Source of the DNA: a virus
DNA: 64,000 nt
Direction: 5' to 3' (one strand)
IMG/VR virus record: IMGVR_UViG_3300042350_001802
Span: 32,001 to 96,000 of that record
Numbering within the stretch: position 1 is the stretch's first letter; each line of letters begins with the position of its first letter. The notes under the pieces were generated by a model. The model was not told the DNA's origin. It did no database searches and saw only the letters and a program-made list of their open reading frames with translations. A program made the translations under genes and the position numbers. Below, one piece after another: positions 35,613 to 52,441 of the stretch.

Positions 35613-35973
35613 AAAGAAACTTAGGGTTGTCAAGAGTCTTAAAATACCTGTTTATGGATGCACACTTCAGTTCATTATAACTGATGTGCTAATTGATGAA
35701 GTAAACAAGATTTATAAGAAATATGACATCCCTGAACTTTTTACTGACTATGCGGAAGGATGTTTAATAAGTTCGGATATAGATTTATACATAGTAGTTT
35801 TTGAAGATAGATACTTATCTCACAATACAATAGCACATGAAATCTTTCATGCTGTTACAAAAATAACTGAGGACAGAGGAATTGAGGATGATGAACAACA
35901 AGCATGGTTATGTGGATGGGTTACAGAACACTTGTATAAATTTATAGCAAAGAAGAATCTTACAGTTAAGTAA
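35581..35973 (+). CDS. Small zincin metalloprotease-like protein
   Basis: TIAHEIFHAV (HExxH) plus downstream DEQQAW glutamate; ATG at 35581 preferred. Confidence 0.65.
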   Translation: MENTTQCSNDKKKLRVVKSLKIPVYGCTLQFIITDVLIDEVNKIYKKYDIPELFTDYAEGCLISSDIDLYIVVFEDRYLSHNTIAHEIFHAVTKITEDRGIEDDEQQAWLCGWVTEHLYKFIAKKNLTVK

Positions 35974-38900
35974 TGGCAGAACAACAAAATACAAGTTCAA
36001 TTAAAACAAACATCTTTACCAAAGGAATGGTGAAGGATACAGATCCATCGTTTATTCCTGAAGGTGTTTGGACACATGCTCGTAATGCTGTTAATAATAC
36101 AGTGTTAGGTCAAGTGGGGGATATTGGTAATGAACCTGCAAATAAATACTGTACATCAGCTCCATTTACAGTTATAGGAATAGTTTCTTTAATTGAAGAT
36201 AAATGGGTTGTTTTTTCTACAAATGATGTTGATTCTGAGATTGGCATATTTGATGAATCTGAATGCTCCTATAAAAAGATTGTAAGAGATGCATGCTTAA
36301 ACTTTAAAACATCCCATCTTATAAAGGGGGTATCTCGTGAAAACTTTGACTGTACAAGATCCGTTTACTTTGTAGATTCTTTAAATCCAGATCGCGTTTT
36401 AAATCTTGATCGCGTCCCTTATATAGCAAAACGTAAAAGAAAGATTGGGGATAATTGTTACGTTGATGAGTATAGTGATAAACTAGATTGTGAAGCATTA
36501 CGTATTGCCCCTCTTATTGATAGTCCATGCATCTCATTAAAAAAATCAGATAGCTCAGGAACTCTTCCTAATGGATCATATCAGGTTGCTGTTGCTTATA
36601 GTAGCAATGGAATTAGACTTACAGATTACTTTCTTCCATCTAATATACAATCCTTATTTAATCATTCTAATGTTGCGGGGGCAGTAGAAGTTGGTATTTC
36701 TTTTATGGATAGTTCTTATGATGAGTTTGAACTAGTATTGATTAGTACCATAAGTGCTAACACTGTAGCCCGTAGTATTGGGTTTTATTCTACAAGATCT
36801 AAAACTATTCTTATAGATAGATTGGATGATGTAAGTCCCGCAGTTTCTCTTAGTGAGATTCCTTTGATTACACCATCTTATGAAACTTCAGATAATATAA
36901 CTGAAGTGAATGGGTATTTAGTACGTACTGGAATTTATACACGTCCTAATTTTAACTATCAACCTCAAGCAAACAATATAGTTACCAAATGGGTATCTGT
37001 AAATTTACCAGCTGACTATTATGTTAAAGGTGGTAATCAAACCTCGTACATGCGTGATGAGGTGTATTCTTTCTTTATCCGTTGGGTTTATAATACTGGA
37101 GATAGATCTGCATCCTATCATATTCCAGGTAGAAAAGCTATTGGTTCTGATAATAGAACTATTGGTGGTGCAGATGCATTAGAATCTGCTTCTGGTGTTG
37201 TTACTAGAAAGTGGGAAGCATATGATACTTCTGACATTACATCTACAACACAATATCAACTTCCAAATGGACAGGGAACTGTTATTGCAGAAGGTGTTAT
37301 GTCATACTGGGAATCTTCTGAATCTTATCCTGATGATAAACCGATCATTTGGGGAGATTTATGTGGCGATAAAATCCGTCATCATAAATTTCCTGATAAT
37401 TGCACAACTAATATTAATAGTAGCGATGGCGCTAACATTAATATACTGGGTGTTAAGTTTGAAAATATCAGTCATCCGTTGGATATTAACGGAAATCCTA
37501 TCCAATCTATAGTTGGATATGAAATCTTACGTGGATCTCGTGAAGGTAATAAAACAATTATTGCCAAGGGTATTCTTAATAATATGGGTGAATACGATCT
37601 TGATGAACAGATAACAGAACGTAAAGGACTATATTCTAACTATCCTTTTAATGATCTGCGTGTAGATCCATATTTAAGTAAGAAAGAAGTTAAAGGTGGA
37701 TGTGCAGGTAAGGGATATGAACCTATGGGTACATTTAAAAATGATGTATTTAGTTTTCATTCTCCAGAGACACAGTTCCAAGATCCGTTCTTAAATCCTT
37801 TTGAACTTAAGATACATGGTGAAATATCTGGATCGGTAGATGGTCAGTTTAAACCTGTATATAATCATCCAGAACAAAAAGCACTAAGAGATGCAGCTAT
37901 ATTTACAGCTGCTGTTATAGGTACTGGTATAGGATTAATTGCTGCTACAGGTGAAAAAACTACTTATAATGTTAGTGAAAGAGTTTCTACATCAGGATTA
38001 ACAATGACGCTTTTAGGAGCCTCAACAGGTACACTTGTTGATAATGGTTCTGGTATATTAGGATCAACAACAGATGTTTCTAGAAAACAATCCCCTGTTA
38101 CAGCTAACTTAGCACAATCTATAGCAACTCAAGTAGCTGGTGGATTTATCTTTGTTTCTTTCTTAGGGCAAGGAATGGAAGCTACTATAAAAGTATTAGA
38201 ATCTTTAATACCTTATAATAAGTTTGCATATCAATATAATGCGCATGGGTTTTATACCAACTATACATGTCCAAAACAAAGTAACACTCGTAGAAAAGTG
38301 CTTGATGCTCAGTATATTAATCCTTATTTACAAGAGTTTGGCATTGACTACAGAATTAATAATCTTTTTAGAAGTAGAATTGTAGCTGTTAGACTAGATA
38401 ATGAAATTGAACGTCCATCTGTAGTGGATGATAGTCGTGTTACAATAGGTAATTTACAACTTTGGAAAGATCCTACAAGACCTTTTAAAAGAACTACTTC
38501 TGCATATTATTCTTCTTTGAAGATTAAAATGGCGAGTCAATATGGTCAGATTGATAGTATTATACAAGTTCCTATATCTTCTTGTGTATATGCTACTGAA
38601 CCAAGTAAAGATCTTAAAATAACTTCTCCAGTTTTATTTGGTGGAGATATTTATATTAATCGATACACTGAAAAGAATACATTCTTCTTTTTTAACGATT
38701 GGTTGTTTGGTCAACCAGATGGGTATCAGTATGATTATATGCAGCATATAAACATTCCTTATCCTCGTTATTGGATGGATACCACTCAGTATGACTACAC
38801 TAAATTAATTGCACCTTTTGCAGCTGGTATTGGTTCAGCAGCACTTTCAAGTTTAGCATTAGAAAGAATTTGGAAAAGAAGTTTAGCAAGAACAGAACAA

Positions 38901-40856
38901 CTTTTACAGGAAGCTAAAAATGGTGCTGCACTTGCTGTAGATCCTGCTTCAGCTACAGCACTTGGAAACACAATTAAAAAACTTCAAGATAAAATAGATA
39001 GGTTAAATAGAAGAATAAATAATATTCAAGATGGAGATAGTGTTGTTAATCCACTTATAGGAGCTGCAGTTGGAGCTGCTGTAGCATTTGGAACTTGGAA
39101 AAATAGAGTGCTTCCTAATGATTATAGATATTTAGATAGACAAAAAAGTGAGTGTGACTCTCAAGCTGCTGTAGGAATTACTGATGGTTATTTTTACTTA
39201 TTTGCTAATGGCATACGTGACTTTTTTGTAGAGAGTGAAATTAATCTTGCTCAGCGCGATTGGGGTGAAGAATTATATCAACGTTTTTACGATCCATATA
39301 ATAATACAGATCTTGATACACTGTTTAGATCTGATATTATAAAGAGTGGCAACTACTTTAAATATGATTATTCTCTATCAGCTTCTAAGTTTTATGTGAA
39401 CAACATTAGTTGGGGTAGCGTACTTGCTCGTGATTTTGATCCTTTGATTGAAAATACCTGTTATAATTATTATCCAAATAGAGCAATCTATTCCCTACCA
39501 CAAAGTGAAGAACTTAAAAAGGATAATTGGTTAGTGTATCTTCCAAATAACTACAGAGATTTTGATGGTAGAGTGACAGCAATACAATCTGCTTATAAGA
39601 CTGGTGCACTTATATTATTTAACGATGCAAGTCCTGTAGTATTTCCAGGAGTAGACCAACTTCAAACAGATAATGGTATTAAAGTGACTATTGGAGATGG
39701 AGGATTATTCACTGGTAATCTACAAAATATATATACCTCAGATGCAGTTTATGAACAAGGATCTTGTCAATCATTTTACTCTGCAATAAACACACCTGTA
39801 GGATTATTTTGGGTTAGTCAGAATCAAGGTCGTGTATTCAACTTTAACTCTGGTCTTAAAGAGATTTCTCGTAATGGAATGAAGTGGTGGTTTGCTAAGT
39901 ATTTACCATCAATGCTTCTTAAGGATTTTCCAACATTTGAACTTTATGATAATCCAGTGGCAGGGGTGGGTGTTATGTTAGCATATGATAATACTAATGA
40001 AATACTCTACCTGACTAAAAAGGACTACAAACTTAAAGATGAGTATGAGGGTAAACTGGTGTATAAGAGTGGAAACACTTTCTTACTTGGAAGAAGAAAA
40101 ATTCCTTTAGGAGATCCTACATATTTTGAAGATGCTTCATTTACAATCAGTTATGATCCTAAAGGAAACTCTGGAAGTGGAGCATGGGTATCTTTTCATG
40201 ATTGGCATCCTAACATGATAGTTTCTTCAAGAGATCACTTTATGACTATTAAGGGTAAAGATGTATGGAAGCATAATGTAAGATGTGATAAGTTCTGTAA
40301 CTTCTATGGTAAGGATTATCCATTTGAAGTGGAGTATGTTACATCTACAGGACAAGAAGTAGCCACTCTTAAAAACATAGAGTATCAGTTAGAGTGTTAT
40401 AAATATGCTCCAAACTGCGAGGATGTTAACCACGTTCTTAATGAGAACTTTGACAATGCTATAATCTATAATACAGAGCAGGTATCTGGGAATCTTAAAC
40501 TTGTTATGAAACAAGCTAATGATCCACTTGCTACATTTGAATATCCAATCATTCGTCAAAATCAAATAGATATTCTTTGTTCTAAAGAGGAGAATAAATA
40601 CAGATTTAACCAGTTCTGGGATATTACACGCAATCGTGGAGAGTTTACACCAAACTATGAAACAATATGGGATACAGCTCCTAATGGTTATGTTAAAGAG
40701 ATAAACCCGACATATACAAATTATACAAAGGGTCCTCTTCAGCGTAAGAAGTTTAGACACTATCTTACACGTGTATTATTTAAGAAACTTGTATCAGATG
40801 ACATTAAGATGCTTTTACGTATTTCTAACAATAAACTTACTAAGTCTTTCAGATAA
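35973..40856 (+). CDS. Tail stabilisation (muzzle) protein
   Basis: F.KGM.KD...P...ARN N-terminus, YMRDEVYSF, IRHHKFP, FGGD.YI and WVSFHDW.P motifs typical of crAss-like muzzle proteins. Confidence 0.8.
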   Translation: MAEQQNTSSIKTNIFTKGMVKDTDPSFIPEGVWTHARNAVNNTVLGQVGDIGNEPANKYCTSAPFTVIGIVSLIEDKWVVFSTNDVDSEIGIFDESECSYKKIVRDACLNFKTSHLIKGVSRENFDCTRSVYFVDSLNPDRVLNLDRVPYIAKRKRKIGDNCYVDEYSDKLDCEALRIAPLIDSPCISLKKSDSSGTLPNGSYQVAVAYSSNGIRLTDYFLPSNIQSLFNHSNVAGAVEVGISFMDSSYDEFELVLISTISANTVARSIGFYSTRSKTILIDRLDDVSPAVSLSEIPLITPSYETSDNITEVNGYLVRTGIYTRPNFNYQPQANNIVTKWVSVNLPADYYVKGGNQTSYMRDEVYSFFIRWVYNTGDRSASYHIPGRKAIGSDNRTIGGADALESASGVVTRKWEAYDTSDITSTTQYQLPNGQGTVIAEGVMSYWESSESYPDDKPIIWGDLCGDKIRHHKFPDNCTTNINSSDGANINILGVKFENISHPLDINGNPIQSIVGYEILRGSREGNKTIIAKGILNNMGEYDLDEQITERKGLYSNYPFNDLRVDPYLSKKEVKGGCAGKGYEPMGTFKNDVFSFHSPETQFQDPFLNPFELKIHGEISGSVDGQFKPVYNHPEQKALRDAAIFTAAVIGTGIGLIAATGEKTTYNVSERVSTSGLTMTLLGASTGTLVDNGSGILGSTTDVSRKQSPVTANLAQSIATQVAGGFIFVSFLGQGMEATIKVLESLIPYNKFAYQYNAHGFYTNYTCPKQSNTRRKVLDAQYINPYLQEFGIDYRINNLFRSRIVAVRLDNEIERPSVVDDSRVTIGNLQLWKDPTRPFKRTTSAYYSSLKIKMASQYGQIDSIIQVPISSCVYATEPSKDLKITSPVLFGGDIYINRYTEKNTFFFFNDWLFGQPDGYQYDYMQHINIPYPRYWMDTTQYDYTKLIAPFAAGIGSAALSSLALERIWKRSLARTEQLLQEAKNGAALAVDPASATALGNTIKKLQDKIDRLNRRINNIQDGDSVVNPLIGAAVGAAVAFGTWKNRVLPNDYRYLDRQKSECDSQAAVGITDGYFYLFANGIRDFFVESEINLAQRDWGEELYQRFYDPYNNTDLDTLFRSDIIKSGNYFKYDYSLSASKFYVNNISWGSVLARDFDPLIENTCYNYYPNRAIYSLPQSEELKKDNWLVYLPNNYRDFDGRVTAIQSAYKTGALILFNDASPVVFPGVDQLQTDNGIKVTIGDGGLFTGNLQNIYTSDAVYEQGSCQSFYSAINTPVGLFWVSQNQGRVFNFNSGLKEISRNGMKWWFAKYLPSMLLKDFPTFELYDNPVAGVGVMLAYDNTNEILYLTKKDYKLKDEYEGKLVYKSGNTFLLGRRKIPLGDPTYFEDASFTISYDPKGNSGSGAWVSFHDWHPNMIVSSRDHFMTIKGKDVWKHNVRCDKFCNFYGKDYPFEVEYVTSTGQEVATLKNIEYQLECYKYAPNCEDVNHVLNENFDNAIIYNTEQVSGNLKLVMKQANDPLATFEYPIIRQNQIDILCSKEENKYRFNQFWDITRNRGEFTPNYETIWDTAPNGYVKEINPTYTNYTKGPLQRKKFRHYLTRVLFKKLVSDDIKMLLRISNNKLTKSFR

Positions 40857-43800
40857 TGAAAAGATCTGACTCCATATTATTGAAGTTTTATAATAGTAAA
40901 CTTCCTAAGTATCAGCAGAAAGGATTAGTTCTTCCTGGATATGCACAACAGTATATGTCTGGTAGAATGGGTGATCTTCAATCACTTATACCAAGAGTAG
41001 ATGTAGACTTTGCTAAAAATATAGCTGCTGCTAGAAAAAGAGATGAGGAAGCTGCACTAATAGCAATTGCTCCTAAACTTTCTTTCATAGGTCCTGCAGA
41101 TACACGTGTGAGTACACAAATTATAGAGAAAGAGTTAGCTGAGCAGCGTGCTAGACAAGAAGCTCAACAAAGATCAGCTCTTGCACAGACATTTGGGTCA
41201 TTTACACCCACTGGTAGTCCTGCTGCTGGAGCAATAGGTGCTGAGATGTTTGTAAATATGAATCCTATTACAGGACCTGCAATGTCTGCAGGAAGACTTA
41301 CACAACAAGCACTAGGTGAAAACCCTTATGGGTTTGATTCTAATAATGCTTGGTGGAAAAATGCATTAGCTAACTTAGCAGTTGCAGGAGATATTGTTGG
41401 AGTGGGGATGCTTGGTAATATGAGATTGGCACAGAATGCACCAGCAAGTTCTCAAGTATTAAGTAGACTAAATCAACAAATAAGACCTTTACCTTTAGTA
41501 AAACCACAAACTGTTTTACAACAAGCTAAACCTACTGCTTCTGTAATTGGAAAAAATGTTTATGAAAAAGTAGATCCTGAAACTGGAGTGAGTACATTTC
41601 AAGAATCTCCTATTACACAGAGGTATGCTTCTAGTTCAAAACCTATATTTGGAAGAGATGAGCAAGGTGTTTTTTCTGAAATAAATGGTATAAGAACATA
41701 TGAGTTATTACCTCCAGCTGATGAAATAGTTTTAGGAAAACCAGTTAGAAACTCTCTTTTAAATATTACAGAAACTGATTATAATATTGTCATTAATAGA
41801 TTACGCAATATACCAAAAATAGATAGATTCTTAAGTGGTCCTTCAGGAAATATAGCAACTTATCGTATTCTTAGAGATTTGGGTTATGATGTTGGTGGTA
41901 TGAGTTCTTCTCGACAAATAAGAGATATGGTTAGAACTCTATCTGAAAATATAAATCAAGGAACAAACTTTGATGATGCTATTAGATCTACTATAAAATC
42001 TTATCTTACTGTGCCAACAAGTGGTTGGGAAGGTTATAGAGGAGGATTATCCAGTAACTATACTTATGATGCAAATTCTTGGACTAATAGAGGAAGTTTT
42101 TTAGGAAACCTTGTTCAAAAAATAAAACGTCAAGCAAATACGGTTGACTATCAACTAGGAGATTTTTATAGAAGTCTTACCGCAAAAACACCACCTATTT
42201 ATAATCAACAGTCATTAGTTGATGAAATAAATCAAGAACTAGCAAAAGGTGTAGGGGTGAAAAAAACAAACCTTCCTTTAAGAATAGAGTTAAACTCAGG
42301 GAATCAAAATATAAATGATTTTTATTTAAGAACCTTTATTGATGATAAACTTGCAGGAGATATTAATCTTGTAAGAAATATAGGTCCATATACAGGGGGT
42401 CCTAGAAAAAAACTCACTGAAATATTATTTAGTGATAATGTTAATAATGCTTATACTAAGTGGTTAAAAACCCCAGGTTTTTTAAAAAGGGGAGATTTTC
42501 CTTTATCCTATTATCAAGGAGCTAATTTAAAACAGCAGGGTATAAGCGGTGAATTTAATAAAGCTATTAATGAAGTTCTTAAGCGTAGAGGATTTGGAAA
42601 TATTTTAAGTGGTGGTACAGGACATTCTACTCTTGGAAAAGAAAGATGGGAAAATCTTGTAAAAAGAGGTCTTGCTGAATTTTTAGGTGATCAATATTAT
42701 AAGTTGAAAAAAAAGGGTGGTCCTATAGTTAATCCTCGTGGATTTATGGATGGTGAACCTCCTAGAGGATCTAACTGGAGAATACCTGGTGATACATTAT
42801 ACAACCCCACTCCAAATAAAATACGTGCTATTTCTGATAACGGTATAGAAAAAACACTTAATCCTTTTGATGAAACGCAAGTAAACTTTCCCGGTGCTCA
42901 ATATGTTGATGAGTATAAGATGAAAATGGGAGGACTATCTCCTAACAAAGCACGTGAGATATTACACGATGGTACAGTGCATGGTCGTCCTTTAACAGAA
43001 AAGCAGCGTAGATTCTTTGGTGCTATGTCTAAAGGAAACACTAAAAAGTATCAACTCGGTGGTAATGCTTTAGCAATGCTTAGAGATTATGGTGGAGGAA
43101 TCTCAGTTGCTTCTCTTAACTCACCACTTCCTAAAGCGCAAGGTGGTCTACCTATTAAGTCAACAACACCTATTATATCTCCAATACTTGAACTAACAAA
43201 GATTTTGACAGGAGTTACAGGAGATAAAAAAGAAACTGTTTCTAATAAACCTAAAGTACCAGAAGTAACACTTGAAAGGTATTTTAATGTTGTAGATCCT
43301 AGAAAGATTAGAGCAACCACTGGACAACCTATTAACCCTAATGTTGATCTTGTTGCTGGTCAATATCCAACAAGATATATTACACAAGATTTAAAGTTAG
43401 CTAAACAAAAAGGTCTTTCAAAAGAAGATGCATGGAATCTTGCAGCAATAGCTTTTCAGGAATCAGGATGGGGTAAGACTGATAGTAACTTGGGACATGT
43501 TTTAGGACCCGCTGGTAAGGGGGACTATGGTAGTACTCTTATTAATGCTTATATGAATAAGATGAAAGAAGCAGATCGTTTGGGTATTACTGATCCGTAT
43601 ACACGTTTACAAGTGTATAACGGACTTGGAAAGATATTTCCTTCTACAGAACAGAAGTATCATAGGTTTAAAATGAAGAAGATATATGGAGTACCTGTTC
43701 CACAAGGAGGATTAAATTTGAGAGAAAATCCTTTATATGGAAAACAAGTGGTTGATATCCGCGAGAATGTTCTTAAAAAGAATCCTAAGTTAGTAGAATA

Positions 43801-44116
43801 CATTGATTCTCTATACAAAAAAAATGGTGGATCATTTGGAGCGTTCGGATATGTAGGAAAGGGGTGGTATAAGAATGGTGGTCAGCATGGAGGATTAGAC
43901 AGATGGTTCGCTGAAAAGTGGGTTGATGTAAAGACAGGTAAACCATGTGGTAGACAAGAAGGGGAAAGTAGAGCATACCCAGCATGTAGACCTAGCAGAC
44001 GCGTATCATCTAAAACTCCTAAGACTAGTGGAGAGATGAGTTCATCTGAAAAAGCAAAGTTTAAAAGTAGTAAAACATCATCACAAAGAATACCTTACAA
44101 TCATAAAAGACGATAA
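40856..44116 (+). CDS. Modular cargo/polyvalent protein (GNAT-like, SLT-like and basic modules) with GG-delimited segments
   Basis: KQQGISG...LSG...GKERWENLVKRG (GNAT-like); AAIAFQESG...YNG (lytic-transglycosylase-like); recurrent xxGG motifs. Confidence 0.55.
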   Translation: MKRSDSILLKFYNSKLPKYQQKGLVLPGYAQQYMSGRMGDLQSLIPRVDVDFAKNIAAARKRDEEAALIAIAPKLSFIGPADTRVSTQIIEKELAEQRARQEAQQRSALAQTFGSFTPTGSPAAGAIGAEMFVNMNPITGPAMSAGRLTQQALGENPYGFDSNNAWWKNALANLAVAGDIVGVGMLGNMRLAQNAPASSQVLSRLNQQIRPLPLVKPQTVLQQAKPTASVIGKNVYEKVDPETGVSTFQESPITQRYASSSKPIFGRDEQGVFSEINGIRTYELLPPADEIVLGKPVRNSLLNITETDYNIVINRLRNIPKIDRFLSGPSGNIATYRILRDLGYDVGGMSSSRQIRDMVRTLSENINQGTNFDDAIRSTIKSYLTVPTSGWEGYRGGLSSNYTYDANSWTNRGSFLGNLVQKIKRQANTVDYQLGDFYRSLTAKTPPIYNQQSLVDEINQELAKGVGVKKTNLPLRIELNSGNQNINDFYLRTFIDDKLAGDINLVRNIGPYTGGPRKKLTEILFSDNVNNAYTKWLKTPGFLKRGDFPLSYYQGANLKQQGISGEFNKAINEVLKRRGFGNILSGGTGHSTLGKERWENLVKRGLAEFLGDQYYKLKKKGGPIVNPRGFMDGEPPRGSNWRIPGDTLYNPTPNKIRAISDNGIEKTLNPFDETQVNFPGAQYVDEYKMKMGGLSPNKAREILHDGTVHGRPLTEKQRRFFGAMSKGNTKKYQLGGNALAMLRDYGGGISVASLNSPLPKAQGGLPIKSTTPIISPILELTKILTGVTGDKKETVSNKPKVPEVTLERYFNVVDPRKIRATTGQPINPNVDLVAGQYPTRYITQDLKLAKQKGLSKEDAWNLAAIAFQESGWGKTDSNLGHVLGPAGKGDYGSTLINAYMNKMKEADRLGITDPYTRLQVYNGLGKIFPSTEQKYHRFKMKKIYGVPVPQGGLNLRENPLYGKQVVDIRENVLKKNPKLVEYIDSLYKKNGGSFGAFGYVGKGWYKNGGQHGGLDRWFAEKWVDVKTGKPCGRQEGESRAYPACRPSRRVSSKTPKTSGEMSSSEKAKFKSSKTSSQRIPYNHKRR

Positions 44117-44117
44117 T

Positions 44118-46052
44118 ATGGCAAACAAACCTAATAACCCATCACTCTGGTCTAAAGCTAAATCATTAGCTAAGCAGAAGTTTGATGTTTACCCATCTGC
44201 ATATGCTAACGGATGGGCAGCTAAGTGGTACAAATCTAAAGGTGGCACTTGGAGAAAAGCACAAGAAGGAATAACAGTTCCTTATTCTAAAGAGTATGTG
44301 GACTCACTTCGTAACAAATGGATTAATTTTTATAATAATCCCGCTTCTTTAGTAGAATCTCCAAGCATGGATGATAGATTTGATGACTTTTACTATAGTG
44401 AAGCTAGAAAGATTCCAAAGGTTAAAAAAAATGTTTCTGGATGGATAAAATATTATGATAATGGAGAAAATGAATTTGAAATGGGATCTAAAGATAACCC
44501 ACCTTCTAATTTTGGTAAACCTATTCCAGGATATAAATTTATTGAAAACGTTACTATAACAGAAGAACCTGATACTAGTGAACTTTCTAGACTAGTAAAA
44601 GCTATAGCTACTACCGAACAAGAAAAACCTCGTCATTTAAGAAGTGTAAATTTTCCAAGAGAACTTATGCAAGTGGGTGGATTATTTCCACGTTTTATGC
44701 AAGACGGTGGTGAACCTGATGGAGGAATGGCACTTGGTCAGATGGCTGCTGTTATAGATAAGCTTAGCAAACTACGCGAGTTTATTAGTGAAGACTCAGA
44801 TCTTGAACCATGGGTTAGTTCTAAGCTTGCTGTAATGGATCATTATGCTGACGCTGTATCTGATTATATGATGTATGGTGCAGAAGGAGATCAGGAAGAA
44901 GAGGAAGAAGAGGAAGAGGATGAAGAACTTTCTGAAGATGAAATGGAAGAGATGAAGAATGGCGGTATTCCTGAGCGTTATAGAAAACGCGGGTTTACTA
45001 GAGTGGGAGCAAAACGTAAGTCTAATCGTCCTGGTAAAAAATGGATGGTGCTTGCTAAGAAAGGTGATAAGTATAAGATTGTACACGGTGGGTATAAGGG
45101 TATGCAAGACTACACTCAGCATCGTAACAGAAAACGTCAAAAGAACTTTTGGAACCGTATGGGTGGTCGTAACTCAGGTAAAGCAACAGATCCATTTTCT
45201 CCTCTATACTGGCATAAACGCTTTGGTACATGGCAAGATGGTGGTAATACAAATAACAATTTAAATACAAACTTTATGAATCCTCTTTATGATTTCATCC
45301 AGCGTGCTCAGATGGGTGGACAACAACAGTCACAAGATGAGCAATTAATGCAGATTATTGCTATGTTTGCTCAGATGCAAGGTATTGATCCTCAAGACCT
45401 TATGCAGCAATTACAGCAACTTTCTGCTGAAGAACAACAACAAGCTATTATGCAGATGGCACAAGCAGTACAACAACAGGGTGCTGATGGTCAACAGCAG
45501 ATGATGCGTAGTGGTGGTATGCCATGCTTTGAGTGTGGTGGTAAGTATGGTGCGGGTGGAGAAATGGGTGGTCCTGTGGAACTTCCTGCTCTTCCTGTAG
45601 ATATTTACGGTATCCCCACTTATGGTGGTGGAGGTGCTGCTTATCTTAATCCCTACACTGATGCTATGATGGAAATGCAAGATGGTGGTAAACCTGAGTG
45701 GTTAATTCGTGCACAACTTAAAGCACAAGGATATAGTGGATCTGCTTTAGAAAATAAGATGTCACAAATGAAACAGGGTGGTATACATATTAATCCAAAA
45801 AATAAAGGTAAATTTACAGCAAAAGCTAAAGCTGCTGGTATGGGTGTACAAGCGTATGCTAGTAAGGTGCTTGGAGCTCCTGAAGGACAATATCCTGCAT
45901 CCACTCGTAGACAAGCAAACTTTGCACGCAATGCTGCTGATTGGAAAAAACAAGATGGTGGACTTGCAATTGGAACAGTTATTGAGGATGCTGATGATGA
46001 ATTGATTAACCGTTTAAGAAACGAAGGATATACAATTGAAATTGTAGGATAA
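44118..46052 (+). CDS. Modular polyprotein-like virion protein
   Basis: More than 10 MQDGG/MKNGG/AQMGG-type motifs separate basic, acidic and Gln-rich modules. Confidence 0.6.
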   Translation: MANKPNNPSLWSKAKSLAKQKFDVYPSAYANGWAAKWYKSKGGTWRKAQEGITVPYSKEYVDSLRNKWINFYNNPASLVESPSMDDRFDDFYYSEARKIPKVKKNVSGWIKYYDNGENEFEMGSKDNPPSNFGKPIPGYKFIENVTITEEPDTSELSRLVKAIATTEQEKPRHLRSVNFPRELMQVGGLFPRFMQDGGEPDGGMALGQMAAVIDKLSKLREFISEDSDLEPWVSSKLAVMDHYADAVSDYMMYGAEGDQEEEEEEEEDEELSEDEMEEMKNGGIPERYRKRGFTRVGAKRKSNRPGKKWMVLAKKGDKYKIVHGGYKGMQDYTQHRNRKRQKNFWNRMGGRNSGKATDPFSPLYWHKRFGTWQDGGNTNNNLNTNFMNPLYDFIQRAQMGGQQQSQDEQLMQIIAMFAQMQGIDPQDLMQQLQQLSAEEQQQAIMQMAQAVQQQGADGQQQMMRSGGMPCFECGGKYGAGGEMGGPVELPALPVDIYGIPTYGGGGAAYLNPYTDAMMEMQDGGKPEWLIRAQLKAQGYSGSALENKMSQMKQGGIHINPKNKGKFTAKAKAAGMGVQAYASKVLGAPEGQYPASTRRQANFARNAADWKKQDGGLAIGTVIEDADDELINRLRNEGYTIEIVG

Positions 46053-47410
46053 TGAAGATACTTATCAAAAATACACCTCTTCCTAAAAATCAAATAGGAA
46101 AGTATATTCCTAAGTTTCCTCCTGGTTATTTACAAGCAATGCAGATGACTGGGTGGAATCCTTCTATGACACCATTTACATTTCCTCAGAGTATGATTAG
46201 TAATGTAAATATTACACCTATTAATATACCTTTAGATGGACTAGTAAATGAATCTACTGTTGATCGACCCCCTTCAGATATATTTCCATATGATTTTATT
46301 GGACCTGAGTTAGAAGGACAAGAAAGAGAACTTGACCCTGTAACCAAAGCTGCTTGGGAACAAGCACAGCGTGATGCTGCTATAATTGGAACTAGAGATA
46401 CAGATGATGGAGAAGTTAGATATAGTGCAGAGGATCTTATGAAAATGAGACAACCTAAAACTACTATTACAACCACAACTTCACAACAGAATCTTTCTGG
46501 TCCCATTCTTGCTTCTATGATTACAGCTGGGTTATCTGGTCTTGGTAACATGTTGCAAAAAAATAATTTACAACAAGCATCTAGAAGGTTTCAGATAAGA
46601 TCTGGAATGACGGATAGTTATTTTCCAGTGATTCCAAATTTAACAAGTAGAGGAACAACAGAAATTAATACAGGAGAAATGTTTCCTAATCTTCGTGTTC
46701 CTGTGCAGTTTCCTGGTAATCCATATGCTTCTATAAATCGTCAACCCTACTTTGGAATGGCGCAAGAAGGTGCGTTAATTCCAAAAGTTCCTTATGATGT
46801 CCCATCAATTAGTATACCTACAACTCCATCGTTTAACTATACGATGGGCACTGATGTTTATTCAGATAGAGAAGAAGCATCATCTATATATCCATCAACA
46901 GAATCTTCTAGTGTAAATATAGTGAACTCAGATACAAATGCAGAGATTTCATTTACACATAATAATCCTTTAAACATTCATTACGGTGATTTTGCAAGAA
47001 AATATGGTGGGACTAAAGGGCATCCAGATAGTGATGGAAATGTTGCTATTTTCCAAAATATTGATACTGGAATAACAGCAGCTAGAGATCTTTTATTTGG
47101 TCCCACTTATAGAAACCTTACAATTTCACAAGCAAGAAAAAGATGGGTGGGTGGACCTAGCAATTCTATTTCTAATATAGTAAAAGCTATGGGTGGAGAT
47201 AAGCTTTTAAGTAGTATGACTGTTGAAGAACGTGAAAAGCTTATTAAAGAGTTTGCGAGATGGGAAGGTAAACAAGCGTACAATCTTTTAAAAGATATGA
47301 ATTTAAAACCGTATCTTAATGATGAGTACCGTGAAGGAGGAGAATATGACCTTACAGATGACGAAATAGATTATATATTAGCTAACGGAGGTGAGATAGA
47401 ATACCTCTAA
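46052..47410 (+). CDS. Cargo protein with lysozyme-like muralytic domain
   Basis: HNNPLNI...AIFQN..TG..A...LL matches NNPGNI-type phage virion lysozyme-like domains; hydrophobic LASMITAGLSGLG segment. Confidence 0.55.
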   Translation: MKILIKNTPLPKNQIGKYIPKFPPGYLQAMQMTGWNPSMTPFTFPQSMISNVNITPINIPLDGLVNESTVDRPPSDIFPYDFIGPELEGQERELDPVTKAAWEQAQRDAAIIGTRDTDDGEVRYSAEDLMKMRQPKTTITTTTSQQNLSGPILASMITAGLSGLGNMLQKNNLQQASRRFQIRSGMTDSYFPVIPNLTSRGTTEINTGEMFPNLRVPVQFPGNPYASINRQPYFGMAQEGALIPKVPYDVPSISIPTTPSFNYTMGTDVYSDREEASSIYPSTESSSVNIVNSDTNAEISFTHNNPLNIHYGDFARKYGGTKGHPDSDGNVAIFQNIDTGITAARDLLFGPTYRNLTISQARKRWVGGPSNSISNIVKAMGGDKLLSSMTVEEREKLIKEFARWEGKQAYNLLKDMNLKPYLNDEYREGGEYDLTDDEIDYILANGGEIEYL

Positions 47411-47421
47411 ACTTGAATAAT

Positions 47422-49401
47422 ATGAAACGCAAAGTAAAAATTGTTAAGAAACCTAGTTATGAATCAGGTGGGATGCACACAGGTGATCAGCAAAACTATG
47501 GACTATATCGTGGTGGTGGACAGATGCACGATTATATGACAGGTCCTGAACAAGCATCCACTGAAGGTATTCGTACAATGTATCCTGAAGTTCCTCGTGA
47601 TCAAGCAAGTATTGAAGTGGAAAAAGGTGAATATATTATACCAGCAGATATGACTGCATTATATAAAGTGGGTGGAAAGAAACACTCGCAAGGCGGTACT
47701 CCCGTATATGCAAAAGGTGGTGAGTATGTCGTATCTGACTATATAACAATGCCTGATGGTTTGCAAGAACTGTTAGGTTTTGAAGGAAAAACGCGTAAGA
47801 AAAAAGACAATACTATTGCTGCTCTTCTTGGTGACAAGGTGGATGCTAAAGAATACAATCGTCTTAGTAAAATTATACAAGATGATTTAAGTGGTAAAGA
47901 TGTAGATCAGTTTGAACTTGCGACAGCTCGTAATAGAATGCCATTATATCAAGAGTATGTATCTAAAGCTGCATTTGGTGGTGAAATGGCAAAAGCGTTA
48001 CAAGGAAAAGATTATGAGATTCCAGCTATTGCTCAACCTGCTATGGAAAAGATTATGATGGGGTCAAGACTTAATATGGTAGAACAAGAACCTCTTGCAG
48101 AAGCTAAAATGGGTGGTGAACTTGTTAAATATCAAACACGTGGTAAAGTTCCTAAATCTAAAGTGCAAGAATATTTAACTCAGGGATGGGCAGCAAATCC
48201 AGAAGGAACTGTTCTTTCTAGAACAGTATCTAGTCCAGGGACTCTGACTCCTGGGAAAACAATTGTTATTCGCAATACAGGTTCTGTAAACGATTATGAT
48301 TATGTAAAACAAAATCCTTCTGAGTTTCCTAGTTTTTTAGTTAAATCAGGATGGGGTCAAGCACCTGATGATCTTGCACGTAAAGCTTGGGAGACATGGA
48401 GATTAACAACACAACGTCCTACATATACACCAGGGACAAGTACAACAGAATATATGGATGTTGTTTCTGAAGAAGCTCCAGGTGTAACTGGTAGTACAAC
48501 TGGAACAACTAGTGGTGATAAACCTGCTAATGGAAATGTAACTATTAAGATTACTGGTAATAATACAGGAACAACAGGGGGTAAATCAGAAACAACAGGG
48601 GGTGATAGTGGTACAGAATCATCAACTTATAAACAACCATGGACATCTGGTGCTCAACCTTGGTGGACACAAAATGTTCTTCAAACAGGAATGCTTGCTG
48701 CTGATTTATTTAATAGACAAAGAATAGGACCTTGGGAAGCTTCTGTTGATGCTGTATATCCTACTGCAGTGTTTAGAAGTCCTCGTCAAGCTATTGCTGC
48801 TATACAATCAGATGCTGCTAGTGCAAGACGTGCTGCTGCAATGCTTGCTGGTCCTCAACGTTTTGCTGCTACTAATGCTGCTATATCTGCACAATCTGTA
48901 CGTCCAATCATGCAAGCAGAAGAAGCTGTTAATGCAGCTAATCAAAATGTTGCTAATCAACTGACTATGCAAGCTATTCCTGATGTAGCTAATAGATTGG
49001 CAATGATGAGAGCAGATCGTGCTACAAGATTGTACGATAAGAACACTGTATTATCTGCTCAAGCTAGAGAAGAAGATCGTATGAAACTTGCAGCACTGCT
49101 TGAAAAAGGAATTATTCCTGGAATGAAAGAAGCTATGAAAACATCTTGGTTGAATGCACTCACTAAATATCCTGTAGACCCTAGAACAGGTGTTATGTAT
49201 TTTAGAGGTGGAAAAGATCTTAATGAAGATCCTACAAGTCAAGGAAATATAGAGTCTGATATTGCTACAATAGAACGTCTTAAGAAAATGGGACTATCTG
49301 GAGATGAGGCAGTTAAGTATGTTATTGGAATGCGTTCATCTAGCAGACGTGGTGGTCAATCACCTGAAGAACTATTTTTAAGAATGCAAGGACTCATTTA
49401 A
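47422..49401 (+). CDS. Putative ejected cargo protein
   Basis: IEVEKGE...GKKHSQGG...GEYVVS motif; Ala/Gln-rich C-terminal helices; ATG at 47422 preferred. Confidence 0.55.
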   Translation: MKRKVKIVKKPSYESGGMHTGDQQNYGLYRGGGQMHDYMTGPEQASTEGIRTMYPEVPRDQASIEVEKGEYIIPADMTALYKVGGKKHSQGGTPVYAKGGEYVVSDYITMPDGLQELLGFEGKTRKKKDNTIAALLGDKVDAKEYNRLSKIIQDDLSGKDVDQFELATARNRMPLYQEYVSKAAFGGEMAKALQGKDYEIPAIAQPAMEKIMMGSRLNMVEQEPLAEAKMGGELVKYQTRGKVPKSKVQEYLTQGWAANPEGTVLSRTVSSPGTLTPGKTIVIRNTGSVNDYDYVKQNPSEFPSFLVKSGWGQAPDDLARKAWETWRLTTQRPTYTPGTSTTEYMDVVSEEAPGVTGSTTGTTSGDKPANGNVTIKITGNNTGTTGGKSETTGGDSGTESSTYKQPWTSGAQPWWTQNVLQTGMLAADLFNRQRIGPWEASVDAVYPTAVFRSPRQAIAAIQSDAASARRAAAMLAGPQRFAATNAAISAQSVRPIMQAEEAVNAANQNVANQLTMQAIPDVANRLAMMRADRATRLYDKNTVLSAQAREEDRMKLAALLEKGIIPGMKEAMKTSWLNALTKYPVDPRTGVMYFRGGKDLNEDPTSQGNIESDIATIERLKKMGLSGDEAVKYVIGMRSSSRRGGQSPEELFLRMQGLI

Positions 49402-49462: not shown

Positions 49463-52441
49463 ATGGCAACATATATTAAAGGATTGATGGATAGCCCGCT
49501 TGCGGTGACACCGTTTACTCCAGACTATAGTTTTTTGCAGACTGTAATGAAGACAAAGGATGCAGAATACGAACAGGGGTTTGCGAAAGTTAAAGGTTTA
49601 TATAACTCCCTACTCAATTCAAAAGTATCTAATGCTGAGGATCAAGAGGTTCAAAAAGCATATATAGCTGATGCAGAACGCAAGCTTCAAAATCTTGCAA
49701 GTGTTGATTTATCTGTTCCGCAAAATGTAGGAATTGCAAATAGCGTATTCAAAACATTTCTTAATGATGATGAGTTGATGTATGATATTAATCTCACCAA
49801 ACTTTCTGATCAACAACTAGCATTAGGACAATCTTTTTTATCATCCGATGATGAAAAACAACGTGCAAAACATTCTTCTATATCTGATGAATACGTTAAA
49901 ATACCTACAGATGAGTTAAAAAGAGCAAAGCGTGGGGATGGTAGTATTCTACAAGTGAGACCTCGTTATTATGTACCTTCTGTTAATCTATACGAAAAGT
50001 TTAAAGGATTCTTAGATGTTTCTAAGTATAAAGCAGTACAAGAATCTCCAAATGGACAGGGATATATATTTACTACTGTTGATGGTAAGAAGGTAGAGAT
50101 GGGGGTATACAATCTTATGAATGGTCTCCTTACAGGAGATGAGCGTAAATATTTTGATGCGTGGGGTGAAGTTGTTTTTAATCGTGAAGTTAATAACTAC
50201 TTTCAGCAAGGAATGTCTGATAAAGATGCTCGAATGGCTGTTGCTACAAATCTTTATACAGAAAACCTTGAAGCATTAACTAAAAGTAAAAATGCTACTA
50301 TTGCAGATAAAGCTCTTGTAGATGCAAAGATTACATCTCTTCAACAATTAAATAGACCTCTTACACCATATGAACAAGAACTATCTACCAGCTTAACAAT
50401 ATCTGCATTAGATTATAAAAAAGCTATAGATTATTATGAATCAACTATTAATAAAGAAATATCACAAAAGGATGACACCATTAGAAAAAATTTTGAGGGT
50501 AAGTCAAAGGTGTTTAGTGATATGATCTTAGAAAGAGATCTTAGATCAATAGCAAAAGGTGTTGGAACTTTAGCTCAAAGTTCAGAAGTTAAATCTGATG
50601 ATGCATACTGGAAAAAACTTGAGCATTTACGCGGTATGGAACAGTTGGAAATAAATCGTATGAAAGCTATTGCAGGTATGTCTGATGGTGATTCTGGTGG
50701 AGGTAGTGGTGGTGGAACAGGTGGTGGGGGTCGTAAATTAACAGAAGCTGAAAAACTTTTAGCAAAAACAAACACCCCAACATATGAAGGTTTACAAGCT
50801 GTTCCAAAAGATGAAGGTAAACCCCTACCTAGATTTTATAATAATCTAAATATGATTTATGATGCTATGATGGATGCTGGTATAAAAGGAATTGGTGAAA
50901 TGTTAGGGGAGGAATTTAGTAAGGGAGGACCAGCTGCAATATCTGTGCTTACAAACTTTTTAGTTAAGAAAAAACAAGAGGGTAAGTTTTTTGATGAAGC
51001 TGTAGAAATTAACAGAGGAACTGGTCCAGAAGCAGAAGCAATGAGACAGTTTATAAAAGTTTACAAAGAAGATATTACACCATATTTATCTAAAGCTGGA
51101 AAGTTTGGTCCTAATGATCCTATCTCTTATGGAGATGTATATGATTTTCTTTTAAATAGATCATATACACAGTATGATAGTCAAAAGGAAGTTTTTGGTG
51201 ATGCTAAAAAAATTGAGCTTTTGAGAAACTCATTTGGTCAAATAGAGCAGTTAAAACAACTTGCTGATATATATGAAAACGATAAGCAAACTCTTGAAGA
51301 TAAAGTTTATTCGCAAGCTGATATTATTCTTGGTCCTGATAAATATGATGTTTCGTTATTGTTTAAAACAGATGCTAACGGTTATAAAAGATTGATTACA
51401 AAAAACGAACTAAATGATATTTATGCTGCAAAAAGATTAGAGATGCAGAAAGAATTAGCAGCAAAAGGTTTTTATAATAGAGATGATGTTGCCAGATCTA
51501 CTAGAATGGCAAATGTTGTAAATGATTATGATAAGATAGAAGAAACTCTTAATAAATATGTTGGAGAAGGATTAACTGCTAATAAATTTACTCTCAGCAA
51601 AGAAGCATTAAGTCAATTTGGAACTTATTATCTTCCATTTAGATCTGATGTTCCTGGTGAAGTTGCAGAAAATTCTATAGCAATGCTATTAAGTGATGCT
51701 AATTTAAGTGTTGGAAAAGATAATACTAAAAATGCTATAGATCTTGTTCCTTTATTAGGAACAGATGATTTATCTCAAGGTGATGTAGATGCAGCACGTA
51801 AGGTACTTGCACAACTTGCTTCTGATTTAAAAAATCCTGATAGCGGATATAGCGGAACGGTACAGTTTAAACAGTTTACTGGTGATCGCGCAGATAATAG
51901 AAAAGAGTATGTTATTAGAATAGACTCTAAAAAACTTCAAGATCAAGCAGATTTTTATGAGAAGAAAGATAATCGTACTAACGAAGATTTGGTAATAGGT
52001 AGTATATATAGAAGGATTATTAAAGAGGGAGGTGTATCAGTAAGAACAAATGATCCTATACCAGGTGGTACAGGTGAGTATAATGTATTAGAAAGATATT
52101 ATCAATCACGAAATAAGTATACATCACCAGAAATGGCAAAAGATCTTTATCAGTTTACTATTCTTAAAAAAGTTGGGGATCAGGGGTATGAACTATCTCC
52201 TGATTCATATTATATGGTTAAAAACCCTACAACAGGAGCTCCTGAAAAGATTAATTTAACAGGTATTGATTTTCCTCCACAATCTAGTTTTTTAGGACTT
52301 GCTGCAGAAACTACAAACTATATTATTGCTAGAATAGAAGCGTACACTAAAAAGCTTCAGCAGCAGCAAGCTAATCCTGGAAATACTAAAGTATATATGC
52401 AAGATATACTTAATCAGTATAATTATAAACCAGGTCAATAA
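49463..52441 (+). CDS. Large helical cargo/ejection protein
   Basis: 992 aa; MATYI...PFTPD N-terminus and a Gly linker; lies before the giant RNAP-region genes. Confidence 0.55.
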   Translation: MATYIKGLMDSPLAVTPFTPDYSFLQTVMKTKDAEYEQGFAKVKGLYNSLLNSKVSNAEDQEVQKAYIADAERKLQNLASVDLSVPQNVGIANSVFKTFLNDDELMYDINLTKLSDQQLALGQSFLSSDDEKQRAKHSSISDEYVKIPTDELKRAKRGDGSILQVRPRYYVPSVNLYEKFKGFLDVSKYKAVQESPNGQGYIFTTVDGKKVEMGVYNLMNGLLTGDERKYFDAWGEVVFNREVNNYFQQGMSDKDARMAVATNLYTENLEALTKSKNATIADKALVDAKITSLQQLNRPLTPYEQELSTSLTISALDYKKAIDYYESTINKEISQKDDTIRKNFEGKSKVFSDMILERDLRSIAKGVGTLAQSSEVKSDDAYWKKLEHLRGMEQLEINRMKAIAGMSDGDSGGGSGGGTGGGGRKLTEAEKLLAKTNTPTYEGLQAVPKDEGKPLPRFYNNLNMIYDAMMDAGIKGIGEMLGEEFSKGGPAAISVLTNFLVKKKQEGKFFDEAVEINRGTGPEAEAMRQFIKVYKEDITPYLSKAGKFGPNDPISYGDVYDFLLNRSYTQYDSQKEVFGDAKKIELLRNSFGQIEQLKQLADIYENDKQTLEDKVYSQADIILGPDKYDVSLLFKTDANGYKRLITKNELNDIYAAKRLEMQKELAAKGFYNRDDVARSTRMANVVNDYDKIEETLNKYVGEGLTANKFTLSKEALSQFGTYYLPFRSDVPGEVAENSIAMLLSDANLSVGKDNTKNAIDLVPLLGTDDLSQGDVDAARKVLAQLASDLKNPDSGYSGTVQFKQFTGDRADNRKEYVIRIDSKKLQDQADFYEKKDNRTNEDLVIGSIYRRIIKEGGVSVRTNDPIPGGTGEYNVLERYYQSRNKYTSPEMAKDLYQFTILKKVGDQGYELSPDSYYMVKNPTTGAPEKINLTGIDFPPQSSFLGLAAETTNYIIARIEAYTKKLQQQQANPGNTKVYMQDILNQYNYKPGQ

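Follow-up and report, generated by a model that had tools for sequence, protein, structure and literature searches.

The question raised by this locus is whether the cargo proteins of a crAss-like phage are precursors that are cut into small pieces at Gly-Gly sites or strings of modules that stay whole. The DNA analysed (the window) is a stretch of 64,000 nucleotides comprising bases 32001-96000 of IMG/VR virus record IMGVR_UViG_3300042350_001802, which is complete at 127,227 bp, has direct terminal repeats and belongs to an aquatic (lake) crAss-like phage. The expanded cargo (ejection-protein) block of this phage consists of four adjacent open reading frames (ORFs): ORF1 (40856..44116; 1086 residues), ORF2 (44118..46052; 644 residues), ORF3 (46052..47410; 452 residues) and ORF4 (47413..49401; 662 residues, with a TTG start), all on the + strand, as are the flanking genes, modules and seams located below. 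The cargo proteins, ORF2 above all, are strings of small autonomous modules joined by a seam of the form [M/Y/W]-[Q/K/E/A]-x-Gly-Gly. Our preferred interpretation, to which we assign a probability of about 0.5, is that the seams are uncut hinge or docking joints.

An earlier note, made from the letters of the window and a list of its ORFs, had claimed that a Gly-Gly motif is repeated about 25 times in the four ORFs. All 18 of the examples of the type xxxGG quoted there, and the four variants with a single glycine, are found in these ORFs. Their 2,844 residues contain the strict motif [YMW][KQRE]xGG at 14 sites (three, seven, one and three in ORF1 to ORF4, respectively). The background, made up of all further ORFs in the whole genome with 60 residues or more (n = 121; 37,186 residues), yields a single copy. 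The note had proposed shuffled sequences as a control, and in residue shuffles of the four ORFs (n = 2,000) the strict motif appeared 0.58 times on average and four times at most. With the first position widened, [YMWFLIVA][KQRE]xGG gives 17 sites compared with ten in the rest of the proteome (shuffles: mean 2.3, maximum 9), and a still looser pattern yields 25 sites, in agreement with the number first suggested. Gly-Gly dipeptides of any kind number 14 + 19 + 5 + 12 = 50 in the four ORFs compared with the 27.2 expected from their glycine content. The motif is restricted to the cargo genes: the muzzle gene and the three giant genes contain no strict copy, as the note had also asserted.

The three strict seams of ORF1 are MKMGG (42920..42934), YQLGG (43049..43063) and YKNGG (43868..43882). 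ORF2, which has 17 GG runs, contains MQVGG (44667..44681), MQDGG (44697..44711), MKNGG (44952..44966), WQDGG (45231..45245), MRSGG (45504..45518), a second copy of MQDGG (45675..45689) and MKQGG (45768..45782). ORF3 has YREGG (47327..47341), and ORF4 has YESGG (47458..47472) behind a basic N-terminus of 15 residues, YRGGG (47506..47520) and YKVGG (47662..47676). The last of these falls inside the N-terminal domain that is conserved in relatives, so its role is probably structural and not that of a joint.

Both glycines are retained at the well aligned joints of ORF2, in 119/119 relatives at the first MQDGG, 119/119 at MKNGG, 104/104 at WQDGG, 112/116 at MKQGG and 119/120 at a fifth joint. In 921 unique GG contexts from 121 ORF2-type proteins, which have a median of 11 seams per protein, the residue at P5 (numbering as for a cut after the second glycine) is Met, Tyr, Trp or Phe in 598 (65%) compared with a background of 17%, and P4 is mostly Gln, Ala, Lys or Glu. 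Proline is enriched at P2' (165/921; 3.7-fold) and at P3'; at P1' it occurs in 36 of the 921 contexts (3.9%) and is not depleted. At the last joint of ORF2 a proline follows the glycines in 22 of the 119 relatives that retain them.

That the motif sits at module boundaries had been claimed from inspection, and it was borne out by three lines of analysis: predicted structure, the ends of sequence alignments, and the fission and fusion of genes. An AlphaFold2 model of ORF2, calculated with 120 relatives, has a mean predicted local distance difference test (pLDDT) score of 63.9 and resembles beads on a string. The beads comprise residues 55-175, 201-240, 270-372, 406-455 and 525-610, while pLDDT values below 50 are found at residues 41-54, 177-200, 373-405, 456-524 and 611-616, which is where the seams fall. 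When ORF2 is divided into blocks of ten residues, those holding a GG (n = 17) have a mean pLDDT of 45.1 compared with 70.8 for the others (n = 48; one-sided Mann-Whitney p = 3.4e-5). Internal ends of BLASTP alignments between ORF2 and the 120 relatives lie within three residues of a GG in 181 of 344 cases (53%), compared with an expected 20%, although kinship among the relatives means that these ends do not count as independent observations; 42 of them fall at residue 184 (MQVGG) and 33 at residue 376 (WQDGG).

Modules are exchanged, fused and split at the seams. In 80 related viral-contig loci we examined the cases in which the N-terminus of one gene matches the inside of a longer relative. 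A GG is present at the junction in 517 of the 681 matches, compared with 672 of 3,488 random internal pieces; counted by query, the figures are 33/61 and 39/383, respectively. At least five junction types contribute to this signal. Two N-terminus types have no GG at the junction, MARKKPIISP (0/14) and MSTSEKAKFK (0/56), the latter being probably a mis-called start. More than 3,682 relatives of ORF2 were found. Their module order is shuffled and they carry additional domains that include YkuD, DUF3597 and a peptidase, so that the comparison of module order which had been recommended revealed extensively shuffled architectures. Several modules of the four ORFs also occur as free-standing small genes in other viruses, among them Tlr6F/DUF5754 and both halves of DUF5872.

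The four ORFs sit between the muzzle gene (35973..40856; 1627 residues; Pfam PF25731 crAss_MUZ, E = 1.4e-32) and the giant RNA-polymerase-associated genes. The muzzle is directly upstream, with the crassvirus capsid protein and ring proteins further upstream (Pfam); downstream are a conserved gene of 992 residues (49463..52441), which by gene order is in the position of cargo protein C2 and contains no strict motif, and then three giants of 2,727, 2,428 and 2,222 residues. The four ORFs therefore hold the place of the cargo protein C1 of crAss001, and the block is C1-position crassvirus cargo, much expanded and split into four genes. Gene position and homology to crAss001 C1 in a single module indicate that the products are probably located in the virion. 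The arrangement is common to the related loci: homologues of ORF1, ORF2, ORF3, ORF4 and the muzzle are found in 43, 78, 5, 49 and 62 of the 80, respectively, and a homologue of the gene in the C2 position ends the block in 47. In the 45 loci that have both anchors the order is muzzle, ORF1, ORF2, (ORF3), ORF4 and C2, and the ORF2-type genes hold 5-15 seams compared with 0-2 in the muzzle and C2 genes.

The closest experimentally characterized counterpart is C1 of crAss001, which is gp45 (Bayfield et al., 2023; PMC10172136; PDB entries 7QOG, 7QOI, 7QOJ, 7QOL and 8CKB). It is described as virion cargo that is presumed to be ejected first and was modelled as one chain across the portal and tail, with resolved segments at residues 214-245 (a helix in the tail barrel) and 425-552 (bound to the portal) (PMC10172136). 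Like the four ORFs, gp45 is encoded immediately after the muzzle, has one module in common with ORF2 and possesses aromatic-GG joints of its own, namely FSAYGG, AFAEGGG, LKAFGG, WNAFGG and MFAYGG. Its GG runs at residues 209-210, 263-265, 427-428 and 562-563 flank the two resolved segments. The differences are that the function is spread over four ORFs here (2,844 residues) compared with 842 residues in gp45, that Tlr6F, DUF5872 and possible transglycosylase modules have been added, and that the seam is [MYW]-polar-x-GG here and A-[FY]-GG in gp45. In the gut crassviruses the cargo is of a leaner design, gp45 and C1 of cr128_1 having A-[FY]-GG joints and one module in common with ORF2, and their C1 proteins have a conserved AYGG-P joint in which proline stands right after the glycines. 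Outside the common module the similarity is low. The N-terminal domain of ORF4 aligns weakly with gp45 residues 445-540 (BLASTP E = 0.029; hhalign E = 0.054 and 0.043, probability about 1%), ORF1 gives a weak match to gp45, and none of the four ORFs matched the Pfam C1 family at E <= 0.01. The accessible passages of PMC10172136 contain no word beginning with 'cleav', 'proteoly' or 'protease' and do not describe the joints, and a search of the searchable literature, with subscription papers and supplements falling outside it, found no prior description of the seam peptide.

If the seams stay uncut in the virion, as we prefer, the bulky residue of each seam would close or dock the preceding module and the invariant Gly-Gly would serve as a tight and fully flexible hinge. 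The string of beads would then pack against the portal and tail lumen, and at infection the modules would thread one by one through the narrow channel before refolding in the host. The hinge or docking role and the absence of cutting are both inferred, and several points speak for the latter. The GG runs of gp45 flank its two resolved segments; the portal-bound segment of gp45 starts at residue 425 and therefore takes in the seam A425-F426-G427-G428 ahead of the would-be cut; proline follows the glycines at some joints; no dedicated maturation protease was found among the six protease families searched for; and GG pairs that look like those of the seam occur inside folded modules, where those of Tlr6F are conserved to the same degree (IVHGG in 119/119 and NRMGG in 120/120 relatives).

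Several observations weigh against this interpretation. The continuity of gp45 over residues 428/429 is taken solely from the residue range given in the text, and the mass spectrometry of crAss001, as described in the passages of PMC10172136 at hand, used one excised gel band and gives no sizes for gp45. An invariant Gly-Gly in relatives that are about 50-60% identical overall is stricter than a mere flexible linker would need; such invariance is what one usually sees at a recognition site. The seams fall where free-standing homologues start, and cutting would free small proteins that are nearly native. Finally, the next gene but one after the block encodes a zincin-like domain with the HExxH motif and a downstream glutamate intact, and its orthologues have been reported in virions.

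The earlier note had inferred a phage maturation protease and proposed that the full genome be searched for a Ulp1/adenain-like or other enzyme. In a six-frame search of the complete genome, matches at E <= 1 were absent for Ulp1 (PF02902), adenain (PF00770), C39 (PF03412), HK97-type (PF04586) and T4-type (PF03420) prohead proteases and ClpP (PF00574). The interpretation in the note is supported in part: the ORFs are cargo genes built of modules delimited by Gly-Gly, and no adenain, Ulp1, C39, prohead or ClpP protease was found. For a C39-type (double-glycine leader) reading, a host enzyme could serve instead. A Pfam scan of 124 of the 125 ORFs of at least 60 residues and one overlapping ORF, which left out the middle giant (60644-67930) and ORFs shorter than 60 residues and in two batches considered the best 25 of 30 and the best 25 of 29 families, revealed no peptidase, the nearest being the S74 chaperone of the tail fibre and Amidase_2.

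The candidate that emerged is a zincin-like domain at residues ~1660-1880 (57438..58100) of the first giant cargo protein (52461-60644; 2727 residues). It contains HELLH at residues 1764-1768 (nucleotides 57750-57764), with Glu1817 and Glu1821 downstream; zincins of the gluzincin type combine HExxH with a downstream glutamate ligand. The region matches genes annotated as 'zincin protease' or 'peptidase' in p-crAssphage and cr107_1, and also g065 of phi14:2, with E values of 1e-5 to 5e-3. An exhaustive HMMER search gave 194 representatives. In an alignment of 33 rows, built with 32 shorter representatives, HExxH is intact in 23, degenerate in nine (for example REEVN and KEEVG) and gapped in one, while Glu1817 is kept in 26 and Glu1821 in 29. 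Relatives that have lost HExxH keep the downstream EFxxEA block, and a non-catalytic role of the domain is therefore also possible. The AlphaFold2 model of the domain has a pLDDT of 81.7 and a predicted template modelling score (pTM) of 0.71. The sole VIA-align matches over the catalytic core are zincins of the M34 type, namely anthrax lethal factor (Z = 7.3, r.m.s.d. 4.7, 159 residues aligned) and PPEP-2 (Z = 6.0, 128 residues aligned, 18% identity), both of which are below the caution line of the program at Z = 8. With the same model Foldseek found nothing at E <= 0.001 (best E = 0.34); Pfam does not recognize the domain, and its relatives give SprT-like alone (E = 0.008-0.023). As an intact HExxH...E is present in a giant cargo gene, a candidate protease would travel with the cargo.

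Published views of such domains differ from this proposal. According to Drobysheva et al. (10.1101/2020.03.07.982082), the gp65 orthologues have a zincin-like protease domain and occur in virions, activation of RNA polymerase or digestion of peptidoglycan being suggested as functions, and fused giants are 'likely cleaved'. The roles proposed for the zincin of crAss giants in the accessible parts of these papers are activation of RNA polymerase or wall digestion and not the processing of cargo seams. The C-terminal domain of the N4 vRNAP also has an HExxH (PMC13434306). In a review of the Crassvirales (PMC10136315) the terms protease, proteoly, cleav and zincin occur once, in a statement on inteins. 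We note that in phi14:2 the domain is in the third giant, compared with the first giant here. Of 11 fused giants that we examined, three have junctions that can be placed, and one of these has FDEGG whereas two have no GG. In the former, a fusion of a zincin protein and RNA polymerase (P0203), the fusion point at residues ~1578-1590 reads ...FDEGG followed by NLFD....

The main rival interpretation is that the seams are cleavage sites, either for the zincin-like domain of the co-packaged giant or for a host protease, and that the strings are cut after packaging or on ejection. Some 10-25 small proteins would be produced, including basic Tlr6F-like, DUF5872-like and wall-degrading modules, and the process would be a phage counterpart of core-polyprotein maturation in adenovirus and African swine fever virus (ASFV). 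We regard this as possible but doubtful. It would account well for the invariance of the glycines, for the fact that free-standing homologues naturally begin and end where the seams lie and for the enrichment of proline at P2' (3.7-fold) and P3', and the giant encoded at 52461-60644 offers an enzyme in which H1764-E1765-x-x-H1768 and E1817/E1821 are in place, whose HExxH is intact in 23/33 relatives and which has annotated peptidases among its matches, a confident model and, over the catalytic core, fold matches to M34-type zincins alone; the published reports of gp65 orthologues in virions and of fused giants as 'likely cleaved' (10.1101/2020.03.07.982082) point the same way. Against this, cleavage products have nowhere been observed, a seam is contained in the gp45 segment of crAss001 given as 425-552, there is no depletion of proline at P1' (3.9% of contexts), HExxH is degenerate in nine of the 33 relatives and gapped in one, the fold matches are middling (Z < 8) with a domain that neither Foldseek nor Pfam recognizes, the zincin-bearing giants are themselves nearly seamless, and only one of the three placeable fused-giant junctions (FDEGG) resembles a seam. 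The more specific proposal, that [M/Y/W]-x-x-Gly-Gly is a processing code read by the zincin-like peptidase of the giant, which would cut the strings in the filled head or on entry, is put forward still more tentatively.

The seam could also be a linear motif that docks each module to a common receptor, such as the portal wing, the lumen of the tail rings, the interior of the capsid or the giants, and thereby tethers every module so that it can be packaged and later released in order, which corresponds to the packaging tag suggested in the earlier note. In gp45 the ordered piece at the portal does open with AFGG, and the helix 214-245 opens four residues past FSAYGG; the confinement of the motif to cargo genes and the strict conservation of the bulky residue and both glycines fit this as well. 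It is nevertheless unlikely, as a single seam is reported to be ordered while most seams lie in predicted disorder, and the seven strict seams of ORF2 and the median of 11 in relatives compare poorly with the known 12-fold sets of sites that serve single segments. Very improbable, in our estimation, is the suggestion that the seam has no function of its own and is a historical by-product of modules having been shuffled with a bit of linker, perhaps aided by the word GGTGGT. Module order is indeed extensively shuffled among relatives, and in the four ORFs the seam glycines are encoded by GGT in 36/50 cases compared with 140/277 for all glycine codons. Over 188 related cargo proteins, however, the codon bias is small (GGT 64% at seams compared with 57%; GGTGGT in 44% of seam GG pairs compared with 41% of other GG pairs), unrelated modules bear the same seam, and in the absence of selection an invariant Gly-Gly would not survive at an overall identity of about 50%. 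A DNA-level recombination word was accordingly rejected as the main cause, the GGTGGT frequencies in those 188 proteins being 44% and 41% of GG pairs. Internal starts or Shine-Dalgarno mimicry by GGAGG were likewise rejected, as the four ORFs contain nine GGAGG and the seams are mostly GGTGG.

Several known systems resemble the block in part. Adenain-type cysteine proteases, those of adenovirus and ASFV (pS273R), mature core polyproteins at GG-X with the consensus (M/L/I)-x-G-G. There, as here, a hydrophobic residue before Gly-Gly punctuates packaged and partly very basic proteins, and if the seams were cut the modules would similarly be released as small core proteins. The likeness is limited to the look of the motif: neither a C5 nor a C48 protease was found in this complete genome, the hydrophobic residue occupies P5 and not P4, which is mostly Gln, Ala, Lys or Glu here, and proline is tolerated at P1'. 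In other phages head proteases process internal proteins, gp21 acting on the T4 internal proteins and gp175 on the inner-body proteins of phiKZ, at motifs of the type LxE and S/A/G-x-E. These are also packaged cargo with short recognition motifs, cut inside the head, but no S77, S78 or ClpP protease was found in this genome and the motif is a different one. The seam with a following Glu or Gln may resemble the C-termini of Pup or ubiquitin. The ejection proteins of podoviruses (T7 gp14/15/16 and P22 gp7/16/20) work similarly in outline; they are not known to be built from interchangeable mini-modules or to repeat a seam peptide. These internal proteins exit before the genome and have been proposed to form a bridge across the envelope (PMC10172136).

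Few phages are as abundant as the crassviruses, yet little is understood of the cargo that they inject. Here, one conserved seam peptide organizes mosaic cargo proteins by the thousand, ORF2 alone having more than 3,682 relatives, and the seam provides a simple rule for splitting such proteins into functional modules. It also places two orphan pan-viral families, Tlr6F and DUF5872, in the context of virion cargo. If the seam were a processing code, the payload injected by crAss-like phages would follow a real polyprotein strategy, and Tlr6F would be a protein delivered by the virion. Whether or not the strings are cut has consequences for how a phage tail lets large protein payloads through.

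Individual modules of the four ORFs can be related to known families. The Tlr6F/DUF5754 module of ORF2 (Pfam PF19058) occupies residues 284-372 (44967..45233), with MKNGG immediately on its 5' side and WQDGG immediately on its 3' side. The Pfam match covers residues 300-348 and scores 38.3 bits compared with a gathering cut-off of 27.4. The sequence of this part of ORF2 reads ...MKNGG, IPERY...FGTW, QDGG.... Free-standing Tlr6F genes of 91-108 residues in other viral contigs align over ORF2 residues 279-376, begin with M(P/A/AA)IPERY and in several cases end with ...TW, that is, exactly at the two seams of ORF2. Tlr6F is a small protein with no known function that has been described in polinton-like viruses, virophages, giant viruses and some phages (PMC4642659; 10.1101/2022.07.28.501842; PMC12220804); it and DUF5872 are both reported from giant viruses and polinton-like viruses. 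Immediately before this very basic module, ORF2 residues ~245-278 (window positions 44850-44950) comprise a run of about ten glutamates and further acidic residues, and the pairing of the acidic stretch with the basic module is retained in relatives.

DUF5872 (PF19197) is found at the C-terminus of ORF1 (residues 978-1075; 54.4 bits compared with 27.5; profile positions 24-111 of 116). The N-terminal module of ORF2 (residues 3-43; 44124..44246; NKPNNPSLW...YKSKGG; phrog_27331, E = 4.8e-7) is the counterpart of the first half of DUF5872-type proteins that are encoded as separate genes, and also of a free-standing gene of 58 residues in phage C72C1. When the whole of ORF2 was compared with cultured phages by tblastn, four records were matched, in each case by this module alone. 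Over window positions 44124-44231, 36 of its residues share 97% identity with the C-terminus of a 201-residue cyanomyophage protein (Synechococcus phage Sf-CH8, PV340853.1), which is unusually high for unrelated phages. Tlr6F and DUF5872 seem to travel as a pair: free-standing DUF5872 (112-118 residues) and Tlr6F (91-98 residues) genes adjoin, without seams, in five of the related contigs (L001-L003, L078 and L088), near locus positions 9,600-10,300 or 2,850-3,490, and BLAST found no muzzle homologue in those contigs.

The module GIHINPKNKGKFT...ANFARNAADWKKQDGG at ORF2 residues 554-615 (45777..45962; phrog_20603) is the one held in common with C1 of gut crassviruses. It matches gp45 residues 374-423 in BLASTP (E = 8e-5; GIxINPxNKGKFT...ANFARNA) and, in tblastn, the post-muzzle gene of cr128_1 as well as other gut crAss phages. 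ORF1 may carry a wall-degrading module similar to lytic transglycosylases, judging by its residues. In the region of residues ~800-960 (window positions 43250-43730) the elements ...FQESGWG... and ...VYNGLG... resemble such enzymes; ESM Atlas places this region with SLT clusters at a score of 0.90, which is a lead by the grading of the tool itself, and searches of Pfam, PHROGs and PDB sequences gave no match for it. In ORF4 the conserved N-terminal domain comprises residues ~55-200 (phrog_36695, E = 2e-4; alignment of 22 relatives), and ORF3 had no match in Pfam or PHROGs. The search of PDB sequences returned nothing for ORF1 at E <= 1 and RecA concatemer chains alone for ORF2, an artefact of the repeated chain because each stretch on its own gives E ~100; other matches had E > 0.04.

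The C-termini of ORF2 and ORF3 (45962-46049 and 47330-47407) share a type of tail in which an acidic stretch is followed by E-I/L-x-x-L-x-x-x-G-Y/G-x-I/V-E-Y/I-L. This pattern fits 36 of 85 ORF2-type and four of five ORF3-type relatives, compared with seven of 716 other ORFs in the loci, and the tail may serve at the end of the protein as a signal for docking or loading. In one relative of ORF2 (P0019), an insert of about 260 residues (residues ~26-290) follows ...VYP; it has Cys as its first residue and ...TITGN as its last, after which the sequence continues with SAYANGW, and by eye the insert looks like an intein. Elsewhere in the window, a late protein of 158 residues (2094-2570) has a match to DUF5856 (E = 5.6e-15), with weak similarity to ferritin-like domains in addition.

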